This document shows positions 37,470 through 50,609 of a stretch of DNA of 64,000 nt, in pieces. Location: positions 3,729-67,728 of IMG/VR virus record IMGVR_UViG_3300012931_000002, one strand, 5' to 3'. Numbering within the stretch: position 1 is the first letter of the stretch; every line of letters begins with the position of its first letter. The translations under genes were made by a program, and so were the position numbers. The notes beneath the pieces are model-generated. The model saw only the letters and a list, made by a program, of their open reading frames with translations. It searched no databases and was not told where the DNA came from. The DNA comes from a virus.

Positions 37470-37946
37470 TCAAAAGACCATCCCACCGTAGACCTTCGCC
37501 GCCGCGCGAAGTTTCGTCGCGTCCTTCGCGCGCATACCAATCAGGAGCGACGAGAACCACTTCTGCTCCCACGGCTTCCCGGTCGTCTTAAAGAATGTTA
37601 GGCGACCTTCCGGAAGCCAGAGCGAATGACATGCCGCGAGAATACCCTGCGTTGCCCGCGTTTCCGTTGATCGGCCGTTGAGCAGCGCGATCCCGTTCCC
37701 GTGCTCTATGAACTTCTTCGCCCAAGCGCAGACGCCGCGGTACGGTGGATTCATGAAGACGCGACCCTTCCAAGGCGCCGCGAGACCGTCTTCGCGCGGA
37801 GCGATCATCTTCTTCGCCGTCGGCCAGGGCATCGTCTCCGGCGTCGCGACGTCGCAGTCGAAGGGTCCGAGGAGCTTGATCAGTTCCGGATCGGTCAAAT
37901 AGTCGTTCGACCAGTTCTTCTGATCGGAGTAGGGCGCGGCTTTCAT
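37470..37946 (-). CDS. Phage-type DNA N6-adenine methyltransferase
   Basis: LGPFDCDVA, DGLAAPW and FMNPPY motifs; ATGA-overlap start. Confidence 0.8.
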   Translation of the reverse strand: MKAAPYSDQKNWSNDYLTDPELIKLLGPFDCDVATPETMPWPTAKKMIAPREDGLAAPWKGRVFMNPPYRGVCAWAKKFIEHGNGIALLNGRSTETRATQGILAACHSLWLPEGRLTFFKTTGKPWEQKWFSSLLIGMRAKDATKLRAAAKVYGGMVF

Positions 37947-38593
37947 AACTTCTCCGTGAGCCAGGCGGCGAAATCGCCGAACCGGAAAAACTCTACCGGG
38001 CTTCCGGGAAGGCACGAGACGTCGAGTGGCCTCTGGACGCCCGCGAGCGAAAGCTCCTTCGCGAGGACGTCTCCGGGAACCGCCCCGGCGCGGAGCTTCT
38101 CCGCTAGCGTAAGGCGCCAGAGGACCGTCGCAGGGTATCCCGACGCGGCCGGTGTCCGGTCGACGACGATCATGACGCCGCCGACGCGGAGCTTTTCCCA
38201 GGCTCGGGCGAGGACGGCCTTCCGGCAGTCTGGAGGGAGGAACATGAGCGTCAGCATAAACACTGACGCGTCGTGCTCTACCCACTCGACGTCCTCGGCG
38301 GCCTTCCGGACGAGTTCACCGGGGCCGCGCCAGAGCGCCGACATCTCGGCGCTCGGTTCTACGGAAATCAGGTGGGCGCCGCGCGCGAGGAGGACCGGCG
38401 CGAGTTCCCGCCCGACGTTCCCGGTCGACGCGCCGACGTCGTAGACGGTTCCCTCGCGCGAGAGGTAGTGCGCCGCGACGTGCGCGACGGCCCTCGTCAC
38501 GAAGGGGTAGAACGGGAGCTGCTCGACGACATGCTCGTCGAACTTCCGTGCGACCTCCTCGTCCTCGAAGGTCCAAGTTTCCGGTATTTTCAT
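37943..38593 (-). CDS. CmoA-like SAM-dependent enzyme (putative carboxy-SAM synthase)
   Basis: WTF..EVARKFDEHV..QLPFY, VYDVGASTG and LTLMFLP motifs parallel CmoA (WTF...VA..F..M..RSVPGY, VYDLGCS.G, FTLQFL). Confidence 0.75.
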   Translation of the reverse strand: MKIPETWTFEDEEVARKFDEHVVEQLPFYPFVTRAVAHVAAHYLSREGTVYDVGASTGNVGRELAPVLLARGAHLISVEPSAEMSALWRGPGELVRKAAEDVEWVEHDASVFMLTLMFLPPDCRKAVLARAWEKLRVGGVMIVVDRTPAASGYPATVLWRLTLAEKLRAGAVPGDVLAKELSLAGVQRPLDVSCLPGSPVEFFRFGDFAAWLTEKL

Positions 38594-39687
38594 TTAGCCT
38601 TCCTCGCTTCTCTAAGCTCCCGGTACGGAATCAAGACGCGATCCCGAACCGTCGCCGCGATTGCCCACATCATTAGCGGCGGAACGGCGCGGCCCATCCG
38701 CTCCCACTGCTGCTCGCGGCTTCCCGTAAGGGCGAAATCGTCGGGAAACGAACAAATCCGGCGAACCTCCGGAATCGAGAACTTCCGCTTCTCGGTCGGG
38801 TGGCAGACGCCCGCGATCCCCGGCGCGCCGTGGCTTGCGAGGATTGTCGGCGACGGCTTCGTCCGGCTCGCGCGGATTAGGTTAAAGTACCGATCCGACT
38901 GCTCGCCTTCCCGGCACTTCTCCCATTCCGGCCCGATCGCGTACCGCGAGATATCAGGACCGTCGCGCGGCTCCGGCGCTACTATTGAATCGTCGACCAT
39001 CCAAGGGCAGGCGTCACCAAGCGTATAGCGGAAGTCGAACGGCTCCGGATGCGCCGGTTCGAGCCCGAGGTCCTCGCGGACACCGACGAAGATTATCCGC
39101 GTCCGCTGCTGCGGGACGCCGAGCCATTGCGCGTCGAGGAGCCGCGCCGCGACGCGGTATCCTAAAGCTTTCGAGCGCGAGAGGATTTCGTTAAAGTACC
39201 CGACGGCAACCCCCCTGACTAATCCGGCGACGTTCTCGGCGACGAAGGTCTTCGGGCGAATACCATCGAGGAGGCGGAGATATTCGAAGAAGAGGTCGTC
39301 GGTCCTCTGCGAGGAATCCGAATACTTCTTTACGCCGCCCCATCCTTTAGATTGAGAACCAGAAGTGGAAAAACTGGCGCAGGGCGGCGAGCCATCAAAG
39401 AGGTCTAACTGCCCCGGCTTTAGCCCGATCCGTTCGAGGACGTCCTTGGCCGTCACCTCGCGAATATCGCGCCCGTCGACATAGGTATAGTCGGCGGCGT
39501 TTTCGGCGTAGGTTTTCCGCGCCTCGGGAATAAACTCGTTCGCGTAGGCAACGCGAAATCCCGCTATCCTGTAACCAAGAGATGAGCCACCACAGCCGCT
39601 GAACGTCGAAGCAACGACGAACCCATTCGGTTCGAGCGCGCGGATTTCCGCCATAGACGGAACGCGGTACGGAGGATGGTCGGTCAT
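38590..39687 (-). CDS. C5-cytosine DNA methyltransferase with motif X Asn->Arg (putative carboxymethyltransferase)
   Basis: FSGCGG, GSPPCASFS, ENV, Q.R.R and SFPDDF motifs; GRAVPP in place of GNAVPP. Confidence 0.85.
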   Translation of the reverse strand: MTDHPPYRVPSMAEIRALEPNGFVVASTFSGCGGSSLGYRIAGFRVAYANEFIPEARKTYAENAADYTYVDGRDIREVTAKDVLERIGLKPGQLDLFDGSPPCASFSTSGSQSKGWGGVKKYSDSSQRTDDLFFEYLRLLDGIRPKTFVAENVAGLVRGVAVGYFNEILSRSKALGYRVAARLLDAQWLGVPQQRTRIIFVGVREDLGLEPAHPEPFDFRYTLGDACPWMVDDSIVAPEPRDGPDISRYAIGPEWEKCREGEQSDRYFNLIRASRTKPSPTILASHGAPGIAGVCHPTEKRKFSIPEVRRICSFPDDFALTGSREQQWERMGRAVPPLMMWAIAATVRDRVLIPYRELREARKAK

Positions 39688-39923
39688 TCGGTCGCTACTT
39701 TCGTGTCTTCTTCGTTCGGCTTCGCGTTTCCGCGCCACGCATACGCGCAGCAGGGACACGCATACTCGGTCTCGATACCGTTCGAGAAGTCAGGCCATAC
39801 TTCCGGCGGAATCGCGCTCTCGGGATCATACCCGGCGAGGTCGGAAATCGCCTTGACGTCGAATAGCGCGCCGCCGGAGGCGATACTCGAAGGGCCTAGC
39901 GAGGAGGAGCGGAGCTTGGCCAT
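39684..39923 (-). CDS. Small protein with C-terminal zinc-ribbon-like motif
   Basis: IETEYACPCCAYAW; ATGA-coupled to the C5 methyltransferase. Confidence 0.6.
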   Translation of the reverse strand: MAKLRSSSLGPSSIASGGALFDVKAISDLAGYDPESAIPPEVWPDFSNGIETEYACPCCAYAWRGNAKPNEEDTKVATE

Positions 39924-44678: not shown

Positions 44679-46148
44679 TCAAATCCTGAACCCGTAAGCC
44701 CCGCTCGGGGCGATCAGCGCGATTCCTTCCGAACAGCGCGTCAGCCCGACGTAGAAGGTCCGCGTCTCCGAATCGGGGTCGAGTTCGTAACCTCGGCTCG
44801 TCCGGTACGTCATGTCGGTCGAAAGAAGGACGCGCCGCGCTTCGGCGCCCTTGCTCCCGTGAATCGTTTCGACGCGGACGCGCGGCGGATCGGTCAACTT
44901 TCCCCCGCGCCGCATGATCGAAAGGTAGTATTCCCGCGCGTCGATCGAAATCCCCGTCAGCGCGTCGTGCCATATCTTCGAAGCGTCGTAGCCGAGGCCC
45001 TTCGCGGTCCGCGTTTCTCCGCCGCCGGGGAACAGCTCGACGCCCGCCGCCTTTTCGAGGAACGGAACCTCCGCCGCTTCGATCGATCGCCCGGCGCGGA
45101 GCGCCTCGTGCGCCTTGATCGCGCGGACGTCGTCCCACTTCACCGAAGACTCGCCCTTGATCGAATACGCGACCCCCTGCCTCCGCGCAGCCGCCGCGAG
45201 CGCCGGAAGCTGCGCGCGGGTTCGCGCGAGGAGGAGCCATTCGTCGTTCGCGAGGTCGACTTCGTCCGGCCCGGCGACCCAGTCGACCGATCCTTCGCGA
45301 TCCGACGAAGACCATTCGCGCTCGTAGCGCCTTTCGATCCGGTCCCCGACCTCCTTCGCGAGTTCGAACGGCAAGCGCGGAAGGCGATGGGACAGGGGAA
45401 GGACCTCGACGGCGAAGCCCTCGCGTTCGAGGCCGAGGAAGCGGTCTTCGTCGGCCCCAGCCCAATGAAAGATTTGTTGCATATCGTCTCCACCGACGAC
45501 GAGTTCCGCCGCGCGCGCGAACGCGTGATTGACGACGGCCCACTGCGCGCGCGAAAGGTCCTGCGCCTCGTCGACGACGGCGAGTTCCAAATCGAGAGGC
45601 GGCAGCGACGATCGCGCGTAGAGTGTTAGCATGTCCGTAAAGTCGACGACGTCTTCGTCGGCCTTGTAGGCTTCGTACGCGCGCGAGAAGCGGAGGAGGC
45701 GAAACCATTCGAGTTCGGAGCCGTGGTTCGACCACGCGTCGGCGAGGCTCTGCCCGGTCGTCCGCGCGTAGTGGTCGAGGGTGAGCAGAGGATCGGCCGA
45801 ACGCCCCGCCACCGGCGCGTCGGAGAACGGGCTTTCGAGGGTCGTCAGAAGCTCTCCCGTGACTTCGGAGACCTTGTCGAGGTGATCGTCGTCGAGGACG
45901 CGACCCTTCGAAAGCCCTAACTCGCGGAAGGCGAGGGAATGAACGGTGCGGAAGTGCGGAAAGTCGTCGGGCTCACGCCCGAACTCCTCGACGGCGCGCC
46001 GAATCGCCTCGTTGACGGCGCCGCGCGTGAACGAGACGAAGGCGATCTTGTCGGGCTTTACGCCGCGGGCCAAAGCGCCGTGGACGATCTTGAGGAGTCG
46101 CTCGGTCTTTCCCGAACCCGGCCCCCCGAGCACTAGCGTCCTGCGCAT
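44679..46148 (-). CDS. UvrD-like SF1 helicase
   Basis: GGPGSGKT, VDEAQD, GDDMQ.I, SHRLP, TIHGSKGAEA and YVGLTR motifs. Confidence 0.9.
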   Translation of the reverse strand: MRRTLVLGGPGSGKTERLLKIVHGALARGVKPDKIAFVSFTRGAVNEAIRRAVEEFGREPDDFPHFRTVHSLAFRELGLSKGRVLDDDHLDKVSEVTGELLTTLESPFSDAPVAGRSADPLLTLDHYARTTGQSLADAWSNHGSELEWFRLLRFSRAYEAYKADEDVVDFTDMLTLYARSSLPPLDLELAVVDEAQDLSRAQWAVVNHAFARAAELVVGGDDMQQIFHWAGADEDRFLGLEREGFAVEVLPLSHRLPRLPFELAKEVGDRIERRYEREWSSSDREGSVDWVAGPDEVDLANDEWLLLARTRAQLPALAAAARRQGVAYSIKGESSVKWDDVRAIKAHEALRAGRSIEAAEVPFLEKAAGVELFPGGGETRTAKGLGYDASKIWHDALTGISIDAREYYLSIMRRGGKLTDPPRVRVETIHGSKGAEARRVLLSTDMTYRTSRGYELDPDSETRTFYVGLTRCSEGIALIAPSGAYGFRI

Positions 46149-47137
46149 CGCGCTTCCTCCGCCGCGAGGATGAATTCGGCGGCGAGCCACGGGTTTATCG
46201 CGTTGCCAGCGCCCCTGAGCAAGCCCACGCGGTTGCGAATGGTCCCAGCATCAACCAAAGGGAAAATGCCGGGTTCAATACGCCGTGCCTTTCCGTCGGC
46301 GCAAGGAACGAAGACGCCTGCGCCCCAAGGGGCTTCCCGCGCGAGTGCGCCCACCGTTTTTCGTCGTACGCCTTCGTCGCGCTTTCGCTTCTCCAGTCCC
46401 GTGCGCAGGGGGTCGCCCAGCCCGCTAGTTGCGCGAAGTCCCGTAGGTCGTTCGCGTGTGGCCCTATCGCCCGCGCAAGCGCTTTCATCGGGTCCTTGTA
46501 TTCGCCCCCTGCTTTGATCTTCGCGTACGGCGTCGGCCACCCCGCCACGAGCGCTACCGTCTTTCTTCCGTTGTCCGTATTCCCCGCTTCGTTGTAGCCC
46601 TTCCGCGCCGGCGTTCCGGCCATCGGCGTAGGCCACCCAGTGTAGTCTTTGGCGGATGTGCGGCGCGCCGACGCCCGCAGAGCAAAGATCGGCGGCCCCG
46701 AAATCATACCCCATTCCTTCAAGGTCAGTTCGTACTCCGGCGAGCCAAAGGCGGCCATCCTTGCTCGCAACTTGCTCGCCAAAGATCGCTGGAACATTTC
46801 CGATTCGGCGCTTTCGCTCGGCGACGATCCTTCGGAATTCCGGCCATAGGTGTCTTTCGTCATCGACGCCTTTTCGATTTCCGGCCGCCGAGAACGGTTG
46901 ACAGGGGCAAGACCCCGTCCAGACTTCTTCGTCTTCGGGCCATCCGGCGATTCGCAATGCGAGGGACCAGCCACCAATTCCCGCGAAGAAGTGACACTGA
47001 GCGAAGCCTTCGAGGTCTTTCGCGCGAACTTCTTTGATCGAACGCTCATCTACTTTTCCTTTCGGGATCAATCCGTCTTCGATCAGCGCGCGAAGCCACG
47101 ACGCCGCGAACTTGTCGTTTTCGTTGTAGTAATTCAT
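46133..47137 (-). CDS. C5-cytosine DNA methyltransferase, main frame
   Basis: FFAGIGG, GSCPCQPFS, EQV, H.RQR and LRGAGNAI motifs; no motif IX in this frame. Confidence 0.85.
   Translation of the reverse strand: MNYYNENDKFAASWLRALIEDGLIPKGKVDERSIKEVRAKDLEGFAQCHFFAGIGGWSLALRIAGWPEDEEVWTGSCPCQPFSAAGNRKGVDDERHLWPEFRRIVAERKRRIGNVPAIFGEQVASKDGRLWLAGVRTDLEGMGYDFGAADLCSAGVGAPHIRQRLHWVAYADGRNAGAEGLQRSGEYGQRKKDGSARGGVADAVREDQSRGRIQGPDESACAGDRATRERPTGLRATSGLGDPLRTGLEKRKRDEGVRRKTVGALAREAPWGAGVFVPCADGKARRIEPGIFPLVDAGTIRNRVGLLRGAGNAINPWLAAEFILAAEEARCAGR
46195..47049 (-). CDS. Nested alternative-frame polypeptide (putative second methyltransferase subunit; true start uncertain)
   Basis: Three GW(P/A)TP repeats and LNPAFSLWLM, which resembles motif IX. 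Confidence 0.6.
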   Translation of the reverse strand: MSVRSKKFARKTSKASLSVTSSRELVAGPSHCESPDGPKTKKSGRGLAPVNRSRRPEIEKASMTKDTYGRNSEGSSPSESAESEMFQRSLASKLRARMAAFGSPEYELTLKEWGMISGPPIFALRASARRTSAKDYTGWPTPMAGTPARKGYNEAGNTDNGRKTVALVAGWPTPYAKIKAGGEYKDPMKALARAIGPHANDLRDFAQLAGWATPCARDWRSESATKAYDEKRWAHSRGKPLGAQASSFLAPTERHGVLNPAFSLWLMLGPFATAWACSGALATR

Positions 47138-47526
47138 ATGAGCGCCTCGTACCATCCGTCGGCGCGCTCGACCAAAGCCCCGGCGGCGACGAGTTCGTCT
47201 AAGCCCTTCCGAAGGCTCCGCCGCAATATTCCGGCATTCGCCGCGAGTTTGCTAGGAAGGACGTCCGACTTCGCGGCCTTGACGGCGTTAAGCAACCGCC
47301 GCTGCTCGTCCGACAACCTCGCCGGGCGCTCCTTGAGCCGCCATTCGCCCGAAGCCGTCTTGACGACCCGCCCGGCGCTTTTGAGGTCGTAGAGGACGCC
47401 GGTAACGACGCCGAAGCGCGCGTTTAGCCGCTTCGCAACGTCCATCGTCGAAAGATAGGGCAGCGGGGCGGCGGGCGACGGCGGCGCGAGCGTTGCGAGT
47501 ATCCGGCAGGCAAAGGCGGTTAGCAT
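47134..47526 (-). CDS. Tandem winged-helix-like protein
   Basis: LYDLKSAGRVVK...GEW and LDELVAAGALVE...GWY repeats. Confidence 0.55.
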   Translation of the reverse strand: MLTAFACRILATLAPPSPAAPLPYLSTMDVAKRLNARFGVVTGVLYDLKSAGRVVKTASGEWRLKERPARLSDEQRRLLNAVKAAKSDVLPSKLAANAGILRRSLRKGLDELVAAGALVERADGWYEALI

Positions 47527-47686: not shown

Positions 47687-49414
47687 TCAAGCGCAGTCCT
47701 TCCGACCCGTCTCGGGATCGATAGCGCAGGTTCCGCCTTCGCCTTCGTTCTTCGGGCTTTCCGCGACGAGAAGCGCCATACGGGAACCGTCGGCGTTAAA
47801 GGTTGTACACCCCTTGCCGCCGCCCTCGTAAACGCGCCGATAGATTCCAGTAAAGTCGTCCCAGGGGGTCTTCTTCGTGACGTTGACCGTTTTCGAGACG
47901 GCAGAGTCGACGTAGCGCTGGGCGGTTACGAGGACTGCGACGTGCTCGTCCGGCGTTACGTCAGCCGCGAGCTTACCCCGAACGCCGAGGAACTCCGAGC
48001 CGTAATCGCCGATCGTAGATACGACCGGCCCGTCCGGAGCATTGATCGTCCGCTTCGTCGCGTAGGCGAAGACCGGCTCGATTCCAGAGCTTACGTTATC
48101 GGCGCAGAGGGAGATAGTCCCCGTCGGAGCAATTGAGGTAAGGTGACTATTGCGAATGCCGTCGCGCGCGATCGCGTCGCGAACGTCTTCCGGGAGCGTC
48201 TTGACGAATTCGCCTTCGAGATACTTCGTCCTATCGAGCATCGGGAACGATCCCTTCTCCTTCGCGAGCACCGTCGACGCGCGGTAGGTCTCGTCGCGAA
48301 TCGCTTCGAGGATTTGTGCTTCGAGCGCGAGGAAGCCGGAAGAGCCGTAATCGTGGCCGCAGGATTCGAGCGCGTTCGCGAGTCCGGTAACGCCGAGACC
48401 CATACGCCGCTTCGCGAGCGCCTCCGCCTTCTGCGCCGGAAGCGGATAGTTCGTACGGTCGGTGACGTTGTCCATCGCGCGGACGATCGTCGGAACGTCG
48501 GAGCGGAGTTGGTCGAAGTCGAAGTAGTATTCATCACTATCTGCGGAAGGGTCCACCAGCTTCTTCCGCAGATACTGAACGAGGTTAAACGACCCGAGCA
48601 AGCACGCGCCGTACGGAGGGAGTGGCTGTTCGCCACATGGGTTCGTAGCCGCGATCGTCTCGCAGTACCAAAGGTTGTTCATCCTATTGACGGTGTCGAT
48701 AAATAACACTCCTGGTTCGGCATAATCCCAGGTACTTCGCATGATCTTTTCCCAAAGATCGACGGCGCGGATTTCACGGTAGGTCGTTCCTCCAAAAGAG
48801 AGAGGAAAGAGGGAGTCGTTCGCGACGGCTTCCATGAACTTGTCCGTTACCGCGACCGACACGTTGAATCCTTCGAGCGCGCCCTTCTTCTTCTTCGCGT
48901 TCACGAAGACCTCGACGTCGGGATGATCGACGCGGAGGACCGCCATCTGCGCTCCCCGGCGGTGGCCGGAAGACGCGACGCCGAGCCCGACGGTGTTGAA
49001 GTACTCCATGAACGAGACCGGCCCCGTCGCGTAGGTCTCGATCTTCTTTACGCGGTCGCCATGCGGGCGGATCGTCGAGAAGTCGTAGCCGATTCCGCCG
49101 CCGAGCTTCGAAGTCGCGGCGGCTTCGAGGAGGCGCATCATGATACTTCCGTCGCCTTCGACGAGCGAATCCTCGATCGTTCCCGATACCATGCAGTTAA
49201 AGGCAGTAGTCTGCCGCGTTGCCCCGATCGCCCCCTGTATTCTCCCGCCGGGAAGAAAGCGCTGCGCAAGGCAGACGTCACGGATCGCGTGATAGTGATG
49301 TCCATCGTCCGCGAGCCCGAAGGCGAAGCGGTTTACCGATTCTTCAAAGTCCTCGCCGGGCGAGCGGTACTTCATCGCGTGTAGGCTATCGGCGGCTTCC
49401 GTTCTGGGGGTCAT
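47687..49414 (-). CDS. nrdJ: Class II (adenosylcobalamin-dependent) ribonucleotide reductase
   Basis: GGGIGYDFS, RRGAQM, TNPCGEQPL..YGACLLGS and IAPTGTIS motifs; no NrdB-type gene seen. Confidence 0.9.
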   Translation of the reverse strand: MTPRTEAADSLHAMKYRSPGEDFEESVNRFAFGLADDGHHYHAIRDVCLAQRFLPGGRIQGAIGATRQTTAFNCMVSGTIEDSLVEGDGSIMMRLLEAAATSKLGGGIGYDFSTIRPHGDRVKKIETYATGPVSFMEYFNTVGLGVASSGHRRGAQMAVLRVDHPDVEVFVNAKKKKGALEGFNVSVAVTDKFMEAVANDSLFPLSFGGTTYREIRAVDLWEKIMRSTWDYAEPGVLFIDTVNRMNNLWYCETIAATNPCGEQPLPPYGACLLGSFNLVQYLRKKLVDPSADSDEYYFDFDQLRSDVPTIVRAMDNVTDRTNYPLPAQKAEALAKRRMGLGVTGLANALESCGHDYGSSGFLALEAQILEAIRDETYRASTVLAKEKGSFPMLDRTKYLEGEFVKTLPEDVRDAIARDGIRNSHLTSIAPTGTISLCADNVSSGIEPVFAYATKRTINAPDGPVVSTIGDYGSEFLGVRGKLAADVTPDEHVAVLVTAQRYVDSAVSKTVNVTKKTPWDDFTGIYRRVYEGGGKGCTTFNADGSRMALLVAESPKNEGEGGTCAIDPETGRKDCA

Positions 49415-50253
49415 TTCGGTCCTAACTCCTTCGTAAATAGCTTCGTCAATTCTTCGGAATACGCAAGGACATACGACGTATGATTATAGTGCTTCGCCTT
49501 CTCGGCTCGCGCCCAAAGGTTCCGAACGCCTACGGTCGAAACCGCGGCGAGAACTCCGGCGGAATCCTTCGCCCACTTCGGCGCGTCCCAGAGGACCGCC
49601 GCCGTCGCCTTGATCAGGGGGCTCTTGAGCATGCTTGGGTTTCCGTCGCCGGTTTCGACGACCGTTCGGAGCGCGAGTTCGGTCGCGGCGTGGCCGTAGC
49701 GCTTGAACGTTGTCTCAATCGCGTCGATCGCGACAGTCTCTCCGCGAAGATAGTTCTTCGCCGCCTTCGGCGTCTTGAGAACGCGAACGCCGACGGCGTC
49801 TAGCATACGGGACAATAGGATCGCGTCGTAATCTCCTGCGACGACGCGCGCAGCCCAAATCTGGGTTGGTAATATTGCCGTAACCGCGCCATTGATTACC
49901 GCGAACGCCTTCGCTTCGTCGCTCGGGGACCCGTTGATAATCAGCGCCGGGACCTTCTCGATTCCGCCGTGCGTAAGCGCGGCTATTGCGCGGTGCTGTC
50001 CGTCAATAACCGCGAACCGCCCGCCTTGTCGCCGCGCGACAACAACCGGGGAAAAGAGCGCCCACGAGAAGTTCTCGATAACCTGCCGAATGTTCTTTTC
50101 GCCGCGGTCGTTGATCGGGCGCTGATATTTCGGATCGATAAAGAGGTCCGAGACAGGAACCCAGGCAAGTTCACCGACGGCGTCCGTAGGCGCGGGATTC
50201 GGAAAGGGTGGTGCGAACGCGATTTCGGAAAGCGGCAAAAGGTCGTCGGTCAT
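49411..50253 (-). CDS. ParB/Srx-like domain protein
   Basis: IDPKYQR and VIDGQHR motifs. Confidence 0.7.
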   Translation of the reverse strand: MTDDLLPLSEIAFAPPFPNPAPTDAVGELAWVPVSDLFIDPKYQRPINDRGEKNIRQVIENFSWALFSPVVVARRQGGRFAVIDGQHRAIAALTHGGIEKVPALIINGSPSDEAKAFAVINGAVTAILPTQIWAARVVAGDYDAILLSRMLDAVGVRVLKTPKAAKNYLRGETVAIDAIETTFKRYGHAATELALRTVVETGDGNPSMLKSPLIKATAAVLWDAPKWAKDSAGVLAAVSTVGVRNLWARAEKAKHYNHTSYVLAYSEELTKLFTKELGPK

Positions 50254-50609
50254 TCGGTTAGTTCCTTCATAGGCTCGACGAGGCGGTAACCGCGGCCCCA
50301 TACCGTCGCGATTTCCAGCCCGAGCGGAATCAGCTTCTTTCTGAGATGGCAAACGTAGACGTCTACGATCTTCGTGCCGCTAGGAACGTCTTCTTCCGCC
50401 GCGACGAGCTGATACATGCGGTCGAATAGCGCATCCTTACTCGCTACCATACCAGCCTTGTCGAGGAGGAATCGGAAAAGTTCGAATTCCGTCGACGTCA
50501 GGTTACGGATCATCTTTCCGCCGAAGCGGATTTCGCCACGATCGGAGTCGGCGACGATCCCGCCGTATTCGGGGAGTACTTGCCCGCAACAGGAGCAGCG
50601 CTTTTCCAT
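50250..50609 (-). CDS. Stand-alone OmpR-type winged-helix DNA-binding protein, CtrA-like, no receiver domain
   Basis: LT..EF.L...KIVDVYVCHLRKKL...I.TVWGRGY.L. Confidence 0.8.
   Translation of the reverse strand: MEKRCSCCGQVLPEYGGIVADSDRGEIRFGGKMIRNLTSTEFELFRFLLDKAGMVASKDALFDRMYQLVAAEEDVPSGTKIVDVYVCHLRKKLIPLGLEIATVWGRGYRLVEPMKELTE

Follow-up and report, generated by a model that had tools for sequence, protein, structure and literature searches.

Which base would a phage put into its DNA when it encodes, side by side, a cytosine C5 methyltransferase with an altered motif X and a relative of the enzyme CmoA? The question is raised by a pair of genes that we call here cmoX and cmoA-like, located in a 64,000-nucleotide window (the whole stretch of DNA analysed, bases 3729-67728) of the IMG/VR record IMGVR_UViG_3300012931_000002, which has 67,728 bp and direct terminal repeats and is rated complete. 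The initial annotation of this DNA had proposed that the phage makes its own carboxy-S-adenosylmethionine (carboxy-SAM, Cx-SAM) and uses it, through an Arg-bearing C5 transferase, to form 5-carboxymethylcytosine (5cxmC) in its DNA. The comparisons presented in this work support that proposal, and we consider it likely that the two genes form a minimal CmoA-CmoX module, lacking a ligase, for DNA hypermodification in an uncultivated phage whose complete genome has 67.7 kb.

In the pathway we propose, the CmoA-like enzyme would first convert host S-adenosylmethionine (SAM) and host prephenate to carboxy-SAM. CmoX would then bind this cofactor with its Arg333 holding the carboxyl group, Cys103 would attack C6 of cytosine, and the carboxymethyl group would be passed to C5 of the phage DNA to give 5cxmC; both parts of this second step are modelled on the homologous enzyme of Synechococcus phage S-B43 (SpCmoX), which has been crystallised and assayed. 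Since the genome has no amide ligase of the CmoY type, 5cxmC would probably be the final base and would shield the phage DNA against restriction by the host.

The CmoX-type transferase and its linkage to CmoA

The cmoX gene (38590-39687, minus strand) codes for 365 amino acids from its ATG, a predicted homologue of DNA cytosine C5-carboxymethyltransferase. The protein matches PF00145 with an E-value of 3.6e-50 over profile positions 3-321 of 324 and TIGR00675 with 149.7 bits against a cut-off of 100.65, hence the C5 methyltransferase domain is present. The solved structure that it matches best is 8YF3, which is SpCmoX (E 2.6e-69), followed by HaeIII (E 3.4e-23). Alignment by blastp with SpCmoX, translated from the S-B43 record, gave 41.7% identity over 360 columns, and all nine SpCmoX residues that were checked in it (F25, E47, F48, D69, S95, P96, P97, C98 and R350) are kept in the window protein. 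The first four, reported as adenine and ribose contacts in 8YF3 (Yang et al. 2025, PMC12783734), correspond to F29, E51, F52 and D74, all identical. S95-P96-P97-C98 align with the catalytic SPPC motif at residues 100-103 (39379-39390, minus strand), of which Cys103 would be the nucleophile. R350 aligns with R333 in both phmmer and blastp. The codon of this Arg is CGC at 38689-38691 (minus strand) and it stands in a motif X reading MGRAVPP, as the initial annotation had it, while the second C5 enzyme of the window (46133-47155, PF00145 E 2.2e-12) keeps the usual GNAI, with the Asn codon at 46202-46204, also as annotated.

The weight of that Arg comes from the work on SpCmoX. According to Yang et al. 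(PMC12783734), Arg350 replaces Asn304 of HhaI and touches the carboxymethyl group of Cx-SAM; the wild-type enzyme forms 5cxmC from carboxy-SAM, the only cofactor it accepts, and the R350N mutant accepts neither cofactor. DNA modified by SpCmoX is described there as resistant to HhaI, and the SPPC motif served the same authors as a search criterion for CmoX. By every sequence criterion for CmoX in that paper, the window transferase belongs to this group.

The cmoA-like gene (37943-38593, minus strand) codes for 216 amino acids; the product is probably a carboxy-SAM synthase, and the phage lineage to which it belongs is divergent. At E <= 1e-5 we found 445 proteins of this lineage, 120 of which, with 49-66% identity, were examined. 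The viral survey comprised the best 80 of at least 575 confirmed viral-contig loci carrying the same CmoA lineage. A same-strand CmoX lies directly upstream of the CmoA-lineage gene in 50 of the 80, and the motif X residue of these 50 proteins is Arg in every case and Asn in none. Thirty loci gave no alignment at the motif X column, with L043, L051 and L052 matched at the Cys motif and not at motif X. In a second survey we collected 80 loci from bacterial genomes, mostly metagenome-assembled genomes labelled Alphaproteobacteria or Rickettsiales, but also Verrucomicrobia, Desulfovibrionaceae and Vibrio. Upstream sequence of at least 1,500 nt was available for 73 of them: an Arg-type CmoX was found in 21, a ParB-fused protein (see below) in 45, both in none, neither in 7, and a CmoX of non-Arg type in none.

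Ten named-phage loci were picked by hand, nine from 85 transferase-matching records (one per host group, hence a non-random choice) and one through a CmoA-like match. A CmoA-like gene is located within 6 kb in four of the five Arg-type loci (Mcat8, S-B43, TurkishDelight, PaBG and pEa_SNUABM_46) versus none of the four loci with Asn or Met at this position (CL131, FPSV-S2, BMBtp14 and BI-TP1). The initial annotation had looked to just such a co-occurrence of motif X Arg with cmoA-like neighbours, and it is seen in viral, bacterial-genome and named-phage loci alike. It is mainly because of this linkage to Arg-type CmoX that we accept the CmoA-like gene as the supplier of the cofactor.

Some of the named phages deserve a separate remark. 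The transferases of CL131 (Asn) and of FPSV-S2, BMBtp14 and BI-TP1 (Met) are 30-37% identical to the window CmoX and keep SPPC (L092, L093, L094 and L096); Met at the Asn/Arg position of motif X is unusual for a C5 methylase. A Staphylococcus phage SPbeta-like (KT429160, L002:3989-5688) carries a cmoA of canonical appearance, 33% identical to that of Escherichia coli (E. coli), which adjoins a C5 methylase annotated hhaIM, and this C5 enzyme has Gly at the aligned motif X column (VVGGVINQ), neither Arg nor Asn. The jumbo Erwinia phage pEa_SNUABM_46 (MZ475894, L095:4636-6771) bears an Arg-type motif, ERLGRVCVP, in the C-terminal part of a 711-amino-acid fused protein, and a CmoA-like gene was not found within 6 kb of it.

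Final base, cofactor supply and the alternatives

Several observations weigh against the proposed module and are gathered in this section. The ligase was looked for through a single Pfam family, PF00733, and a tailoring enzyme of another kind may have gone unrecognised; the CmoA lineage has a partner other than CmoX; and the CmoA-like protein, next to the CmoX assignment the weaker link of the case, departs from characterised CmoAs in score and active site. The doubt left over by these comparisons is whether the CmoA-like enzyme is active and whether some tailoring step has escaped notice.

Tailoring is the subject of the alternative that survives best, though we regard it as unlikely. It holds that 5cxmC is only an intermediate, which a phage enzyme not of the Asn-synthase type and not recognised by us, or a host enzyme, derivatises further, as CmoY does in S-B43. 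In S-B43 virions the glycine amide alone was detected and no 5cxmdC (the deoxynucleoside of 5cxmC), and ligase clusters with varied active sites are described (PMC12783734). In many relatives of the window locus a PF00733 ligase is encoded among the module genes or behind them, for instance a 267-amino-acid protein in L027 (E 2.6e-10) and a 460-amino-acid protein with a glutamine amidotransferase domain in L081 (E 1.6e-41). However, when the complete 67,728-bp record was searched with PF00733 for a CmoY-type ligase, nothing matched at E <= 0.1, although the control gave a signal in 14 of 14 genomes. Systems lacking a ligase are also common, with 2251 ligases against 5615 CmoX candidates counted by Yang et al. 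(PMC12783734), and our own relatives include loci, L019 and Mcat8 among them, with ParB, CmoX and CmoA and no ligase between. The complete record holds neither CmoB nor a chorismate mutase that could give a phage-encoded supply of prephenate, and no tRNA gene was found in the 64-kb window, which was the part scanned for tRNAs; the initial annotation had already remarked on the missing CmoB, tRNA gene and tailoring ligase, and rightly so. Because CmoY-type ligase, CmoB, chorismate mutase and tRNA gene are all missing, bare 5cxmC is the likely product. We consider it more likely as the final packaged base, unlike in S-B43 virions, than a product of another SAM derivative or of a rebuilt CmoA active site.

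A second alternative, which we find quite improbable, concerns the cofactor supply: the CmoA-like protein could be a class I methyltransferase of the ordinary kind, or a relative without activity, with CmoX taking carboxy-SAM from host CmoA. Host CmoA alone is indeed reported to be enough as carboxy-SAM source for SpCmoX in E. coli (PMC12783734). The best NCBIfam family of the CmoA-like protein is TIGR00740 (E 2e-11), but it stays far under the curated cut-offs for CmoA, with 44 bits where TIGR00740 asks for 193.3 and 29.2 where PRK15451 asks for 285. Its top three sequence matches among solved structures are all CmoA or YecO (1IM8, 4GEK and 4IWN), covering residues 6-146 only. The fold was predicted with AlphaFold2 from 120 homologues (pLDDT 91.3, pTM 0.88). 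When the model was searched by Foldseek, the top six rows were CmoA chains (TMq 0.80-0.87), and VIA-align placed the CmoA structures 4GEK, 1IM8 and 4IWN first, with Z of 26.2, 25.8 and 25.4 and root-mean-square deviations (rmsd) of 2.1-2.3 over 205-211 residues. The C-methyltransferases CysG and BelI are nearly as near in fold (Z 23.6-23.9 vs 25.4-26.2). In this model CmoA is the nearest solved fold, and fold likeness is no proof of function.

The family evidence stands against this second alternative. The probability given by hhalign is 99.4 for the pairing with E. coli CmoA (EcCmoA) and 98.3 for that with the assayed CmoA of S-B43 (SpCmoA). One and the same family, phrog_4752, is matched by the window protein (E 3.8e-35), SpCmoA (7.4e-71) and EcCmoA (1.4e-101), and is the best match also for the CmoA-like proteins of Mcat8, the Staphylococcus SPbeta-like phage, TurkishDelight and PaBG; six of these seven proteins match no other family at E <= 0.001, and EcCmoA has one further weak match. 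The cmoA-like gene is moreover ATGA-coupled to cmoX, and its lineage is linked to Arg-type CmoX in 50 of the 80 viral and 21 of the 73 bacterial-genome loci, while an Asn-type enzyme is its neighbour in none.

The active site speaks on both sides. Tyr39, Asp62 and Gly64 of EcCmoA are kept as Y29, D52 and G54, Lys198 corresponds to K179, Asp89 is exchanged for Glu78, and the column of Asn132 holds Met; SpCmoA likewise lacks Asn there. Byrne et al. 2013 (PMC3663124) describe a salt bridge between the cofactor carboxylate and Arg199 of E. coli CmoA. Both hhalign and an alignment of nine sequences put Glu180 of the CmoA-like protein in this column (Lys179-Glu180, 38054-38059, minus strand), which agrees with the caveat of the initial annotation that the protein reads AKELSL at this place and has its Arg later, in VQRP. 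This Glu does not in our view rule out CmoA activity, since SpCmoA, which has been validated biochemically, has Lys-Glu at the Arg199 column too. In the nine-sequence alignment an Arg follows the conserved Lys at three distances: directly in E. coli CmoA and PaBG, after five residues in SpCmoA, the Staphylococcus phage and TurkishDelight, and after nine residues in the window lineage, within SLxGVQRP. The window protein has no Arg at Lys+5, and the only one nearby is R188 at Lys+9 (38030-38032, minus strand), in a predicted loop. K179, E180 and R188 are invariant over the 120-sequence alignment of homologues, indicating a selected active site, and the string QRP occurs in 118 of the 120 (regular-expression count). 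R188 is our candidate, from these alignments, for the carboxylate binder of the lineage. Taken as a whole, the sequence evidence suggests that the CmoA-like protein is probably a divergent carboxy-SAM synthase.

The partners of the lineage bear on this assignment as well. In 26 of the 80 viral loci CmoX is missing, and a ParB protein, a 511-amino-acid protein resembling a fusion of ParB-N with a class I methyltransferase, and a 150-amino-acid protein stand directly upstream instead. The remaining four of the thirty viral loci with no alignment at motif X are L054, L082 and L083, with less than 130 nt of upstream sequence, and L033, which is unexplained. CmoX is not the sole partner of the window CmoA lineage, the ParB-fused transferase being found in these 26 viral and in 45 of the 73 genome loci. 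PF00145 had no match in four of five searched records of the ParB-fused type. The 511-amino-acid transferase is thus a candidate for a further enzyme, not of the C5 type, that uses carboxy-SAM; in the window no homologue of it was found at E <= 1e-5. That two unrelated candidate transferases are served by one CmoA lineage is more readily understood if its members make a cofactor than if they are methylases specific to one substrate. An example of this arrangement is an IMG/VR provirus (L077:3196-6663), in which a ParB gene, the 511-amino-acid protein (Methyltransf_23, E 5.8e-4), the 150-amino-acid protein and CmoA follow each other just before the terminase genes.

The same pairing with a non-C5 transferase family would also suit a third alternative, namely that the divergent CmoA lineage makes another SAM derivative and that the adduct on DNA is not 5cxmC. 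The basic residue has moved to R188, the positions used in E. coli and S-B43 have no Arg, and in the nine-sequence alignment the lineage is shorter by about 8-15 residues and misses the short C-terminal helix of other CmoAs. Nevertheless we hold this alternative to be very improbable: the partner CmoX keeps all the checked residues of the SpCmoX Cx-SAM site and of catalysis, the carboxyl-binding Arg included, and the sections of the literature drawn on here gave no other donor chemistry for the CmoA fold group. There is a similarly slim chance, all told, that the lineage makes either a derivative other than carboxy-SAM or carboxy-SAM itself by means of a rebuilt active site. If it does make another derivative, the base in the DNA of this phage would not be the published 5cxmC.

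The last alternative, an ordinary 5-methylcytosine methyltransferase with an incidental motif X Arg, is hardly credible: although the C5 methyltransferase motif set is complete, SpCmoX at 41.7% identity took Cx-SAM only and its R350N mutant neither cofactor (PMC12783734), and the Arg goes with CmoA-like neighbours, of which the close relatives with Asn or Met have none.

The Cys-rich protein, its ParB counterpart and the flanking methylases

The CmoX-CmoA pair belongs to a head-to-tail block of five minus-strand genes, in the order N6_N4 methylase, 79-amino-acid protein, C5 transferase, CmoA-like protein and Dam-like methylase. ATGA overlaps are present at three junctions, between the 79-amino-acid and transferase genes, the transferase and cmoA-like genes, and the cmoA-like and Dam-like genes. 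The first two are those by which the initial annotation had joined a CPCC protein, a C5 transferase and a CmoA-like protein, and both read ATGA as described, on the minus strand. The TAG stop of the N6_N4 methylase gene abuts the ATG of the 79-amino-acid gene directly.

The 79-amino-acid Cys-rich protein (39684-39923, minus strand) contains CPCC and no ParB domain, and it had no match in Pfam, NCBIfam or PHROG. With tblastn it was matched in 35 of the 80 related viral loci, and every one of these is among the 50 that bear CmoX. In five loci that were inspected, CmoX is preceded by ParB-like proteins of 167-201 amino acids, whose Cys-rich C-terminal tail can be aligned with residues ~20-68 of the small protein. 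The consensus of this tail is IETEHxCPxCGYxWSG, and in the window version His is changed to Tyr and Gly to Ala. The N-terminal two thirds of the 167-201-amino-acid proteins match the ParB protein of L077 (tblastn). By this homology the 79-amino-acid protein is a leftover, or a stand-alone version, of the tail of the ParB-like partner found in relatives. Beside the window CmoX the ParB N-terminal domain is absent and only the C-terminal tail is encoded. The role of this ParBc partner of CmoX is called unknown by Yang et al. (PMC12783734).

Where relatives have the coding sequence of the ParB part, the window has the N6_N4 DNA methylase gene (39924-~40655, minus strand; PF01555 E 9.3e-20, phrog_67 E 8.5e-64). 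The G+C content at third codon positions of this gene is 0.54, versus 0.72-0.83 in its four coupled neighbours, which suggests that a recent insertion of the methylase gene displaced the ParB domain and truncated the ParB-like gene. At the other end of the block stands the Dam-like N6-adenine methylase gene (37470-37946, minus strand; phrog_111 E 4e-17, PF05869 E 1.6e-05 and below cut-off). Both were considered as parts of the module and rejected, as a Dam-like homologue was found nearby in none of the 80 related viral loci and the N6_N4 methylase gave one weak match in the 80. Most likely the two flanking enzymes, which lie outside the conserved module, are ordinary SAM-dependent methylases of a coupled operon. 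With them, four genes for DNA-base transferases are counted in one coupled block, in addition to the second C5 methylase at 46133-47155.

A search with PF02195 gave a single weak match of 18.7 bits, below cut-off, about 10 kb away at ~49894-50064 of the window, in a DUF6551-type protein. This protein has 313 amino acids (49411-50352; DUF6551 E 7.9e-7) and shows weak GmrSD_N and ParB_N matches. The adjoining open reading frame of 575 amino acids (47687-49414) has a translation which, judged by eye, resembles ribonucleotide reductase.

Comparison with known systems

Phage pairs of this kind might already be in print, as the initial annotation had cautioned, and they are: the first experimental demonstration, in December 2025, was of CmoA, CmoX and CmoY of Synechococcus phage S-B43, CmoY being an ATP-dependent amide ligase for 5cxmC and a homologue of Asn synthase (Yang et al., Nat Commun, PMC12783734). 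The same authors list 5,615 CmoX candidates with SPPC and Arg, and in the contigs of these 4,257 CmoA, 2,251 ligase and 1,660 ParBc sequences, among which the window record or its CmoA lineage may already be present. Among the papers listed by literature searches on CmoX and, from 2024 on, on 5cxmC and carboxy-SAM, we found no second one on natural phage systems.

Taken alone, one complete phage genome adds little to a system with 5,615 candidate CmoX enzymes. Being complete and ligase-less, it is however a clean candidate for natural DNA with bare 5cxmC. Its CmoA belongs by sequence to a large lineage with hundreds of phage and prophage members and a moved candidate carboxylate-binding Arg, and may help to tell which parts of the CmoA active site are indispensable. 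The pairing of this lineage with a second, non-C5, ParB-fused transferase suggests that carboxy-SAM is used on DNA more broadly than in the published case.

An engineered CpG methyltransferase, M.MpeI N374K, reportedly carboxymethylates DNA; unlike it, the window enzyme is natural, has Arg and not Lys, and falls in the CmoX clade. That a basic residue in place of the motif X Asn allows the use of carboxy-SAM is stated in the Discussion of PMC12783734.

E. coli CmoA (4GEK/4IWN), which works together with CmoB, shares with the window protein the fold (Z 26.2, rmsd 2.3, 211 residues) and the residues Y29, D52, G54 and K179. It differs by Arg199 in place of Glu180, by Asn132 and Asp89 where the window protein has Met and Glu, and by the C-terminal helix that the latter misses. 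The acceptor differs as well, tRNA via CmoB in E. coli and, as we propose, DNA via CmoX in the window phage.

Near-identical DNA was not found among named phages. Among these phages the nearest counterpart to the pair is encoded by Moraxella phage Mcat8 (KR093632; AKI27362/AKI27361, annotated as hypothetical). Its CmoX-like protein is 46% identical and reads ERMGRMV, its CmoA-like protein is 42-43% identical and reads SLSGIQRP, and the two genes lie next to each other in the same orientation, without an intervening ligase. Unlike the window phage, Mcat8 is a 40.7-kb Moraxella phage in which the pair stands just before the terminase genes.

With S-B43 the window phage has in common a C5 transferase with SPPC and a motif X Arg (41.7% identity, nine of nine residues), a neighbouring CmoA-family gene in phrog_4752 accompanied by no CmoB in the window genome, and the association with a ParB-type partner, which by sequence is reduced to its tail, a mere stump, in the window. 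The two differ in several respects. The window genome has no CmoY ligase, and its predicted end product is 5cxmC, not the glycine amide; the gene order is tail-CmoX-CmoA against CmoA-CmoY-CmoX; and the window CmoA is about 20% identical to SpCmoA, with its Arg four residues further along. The target reported for S-B43 is GC. Judged by these comparisons, the window pair is one more case, CmoY-less, of the known and widespread CmoA-CmoX system.

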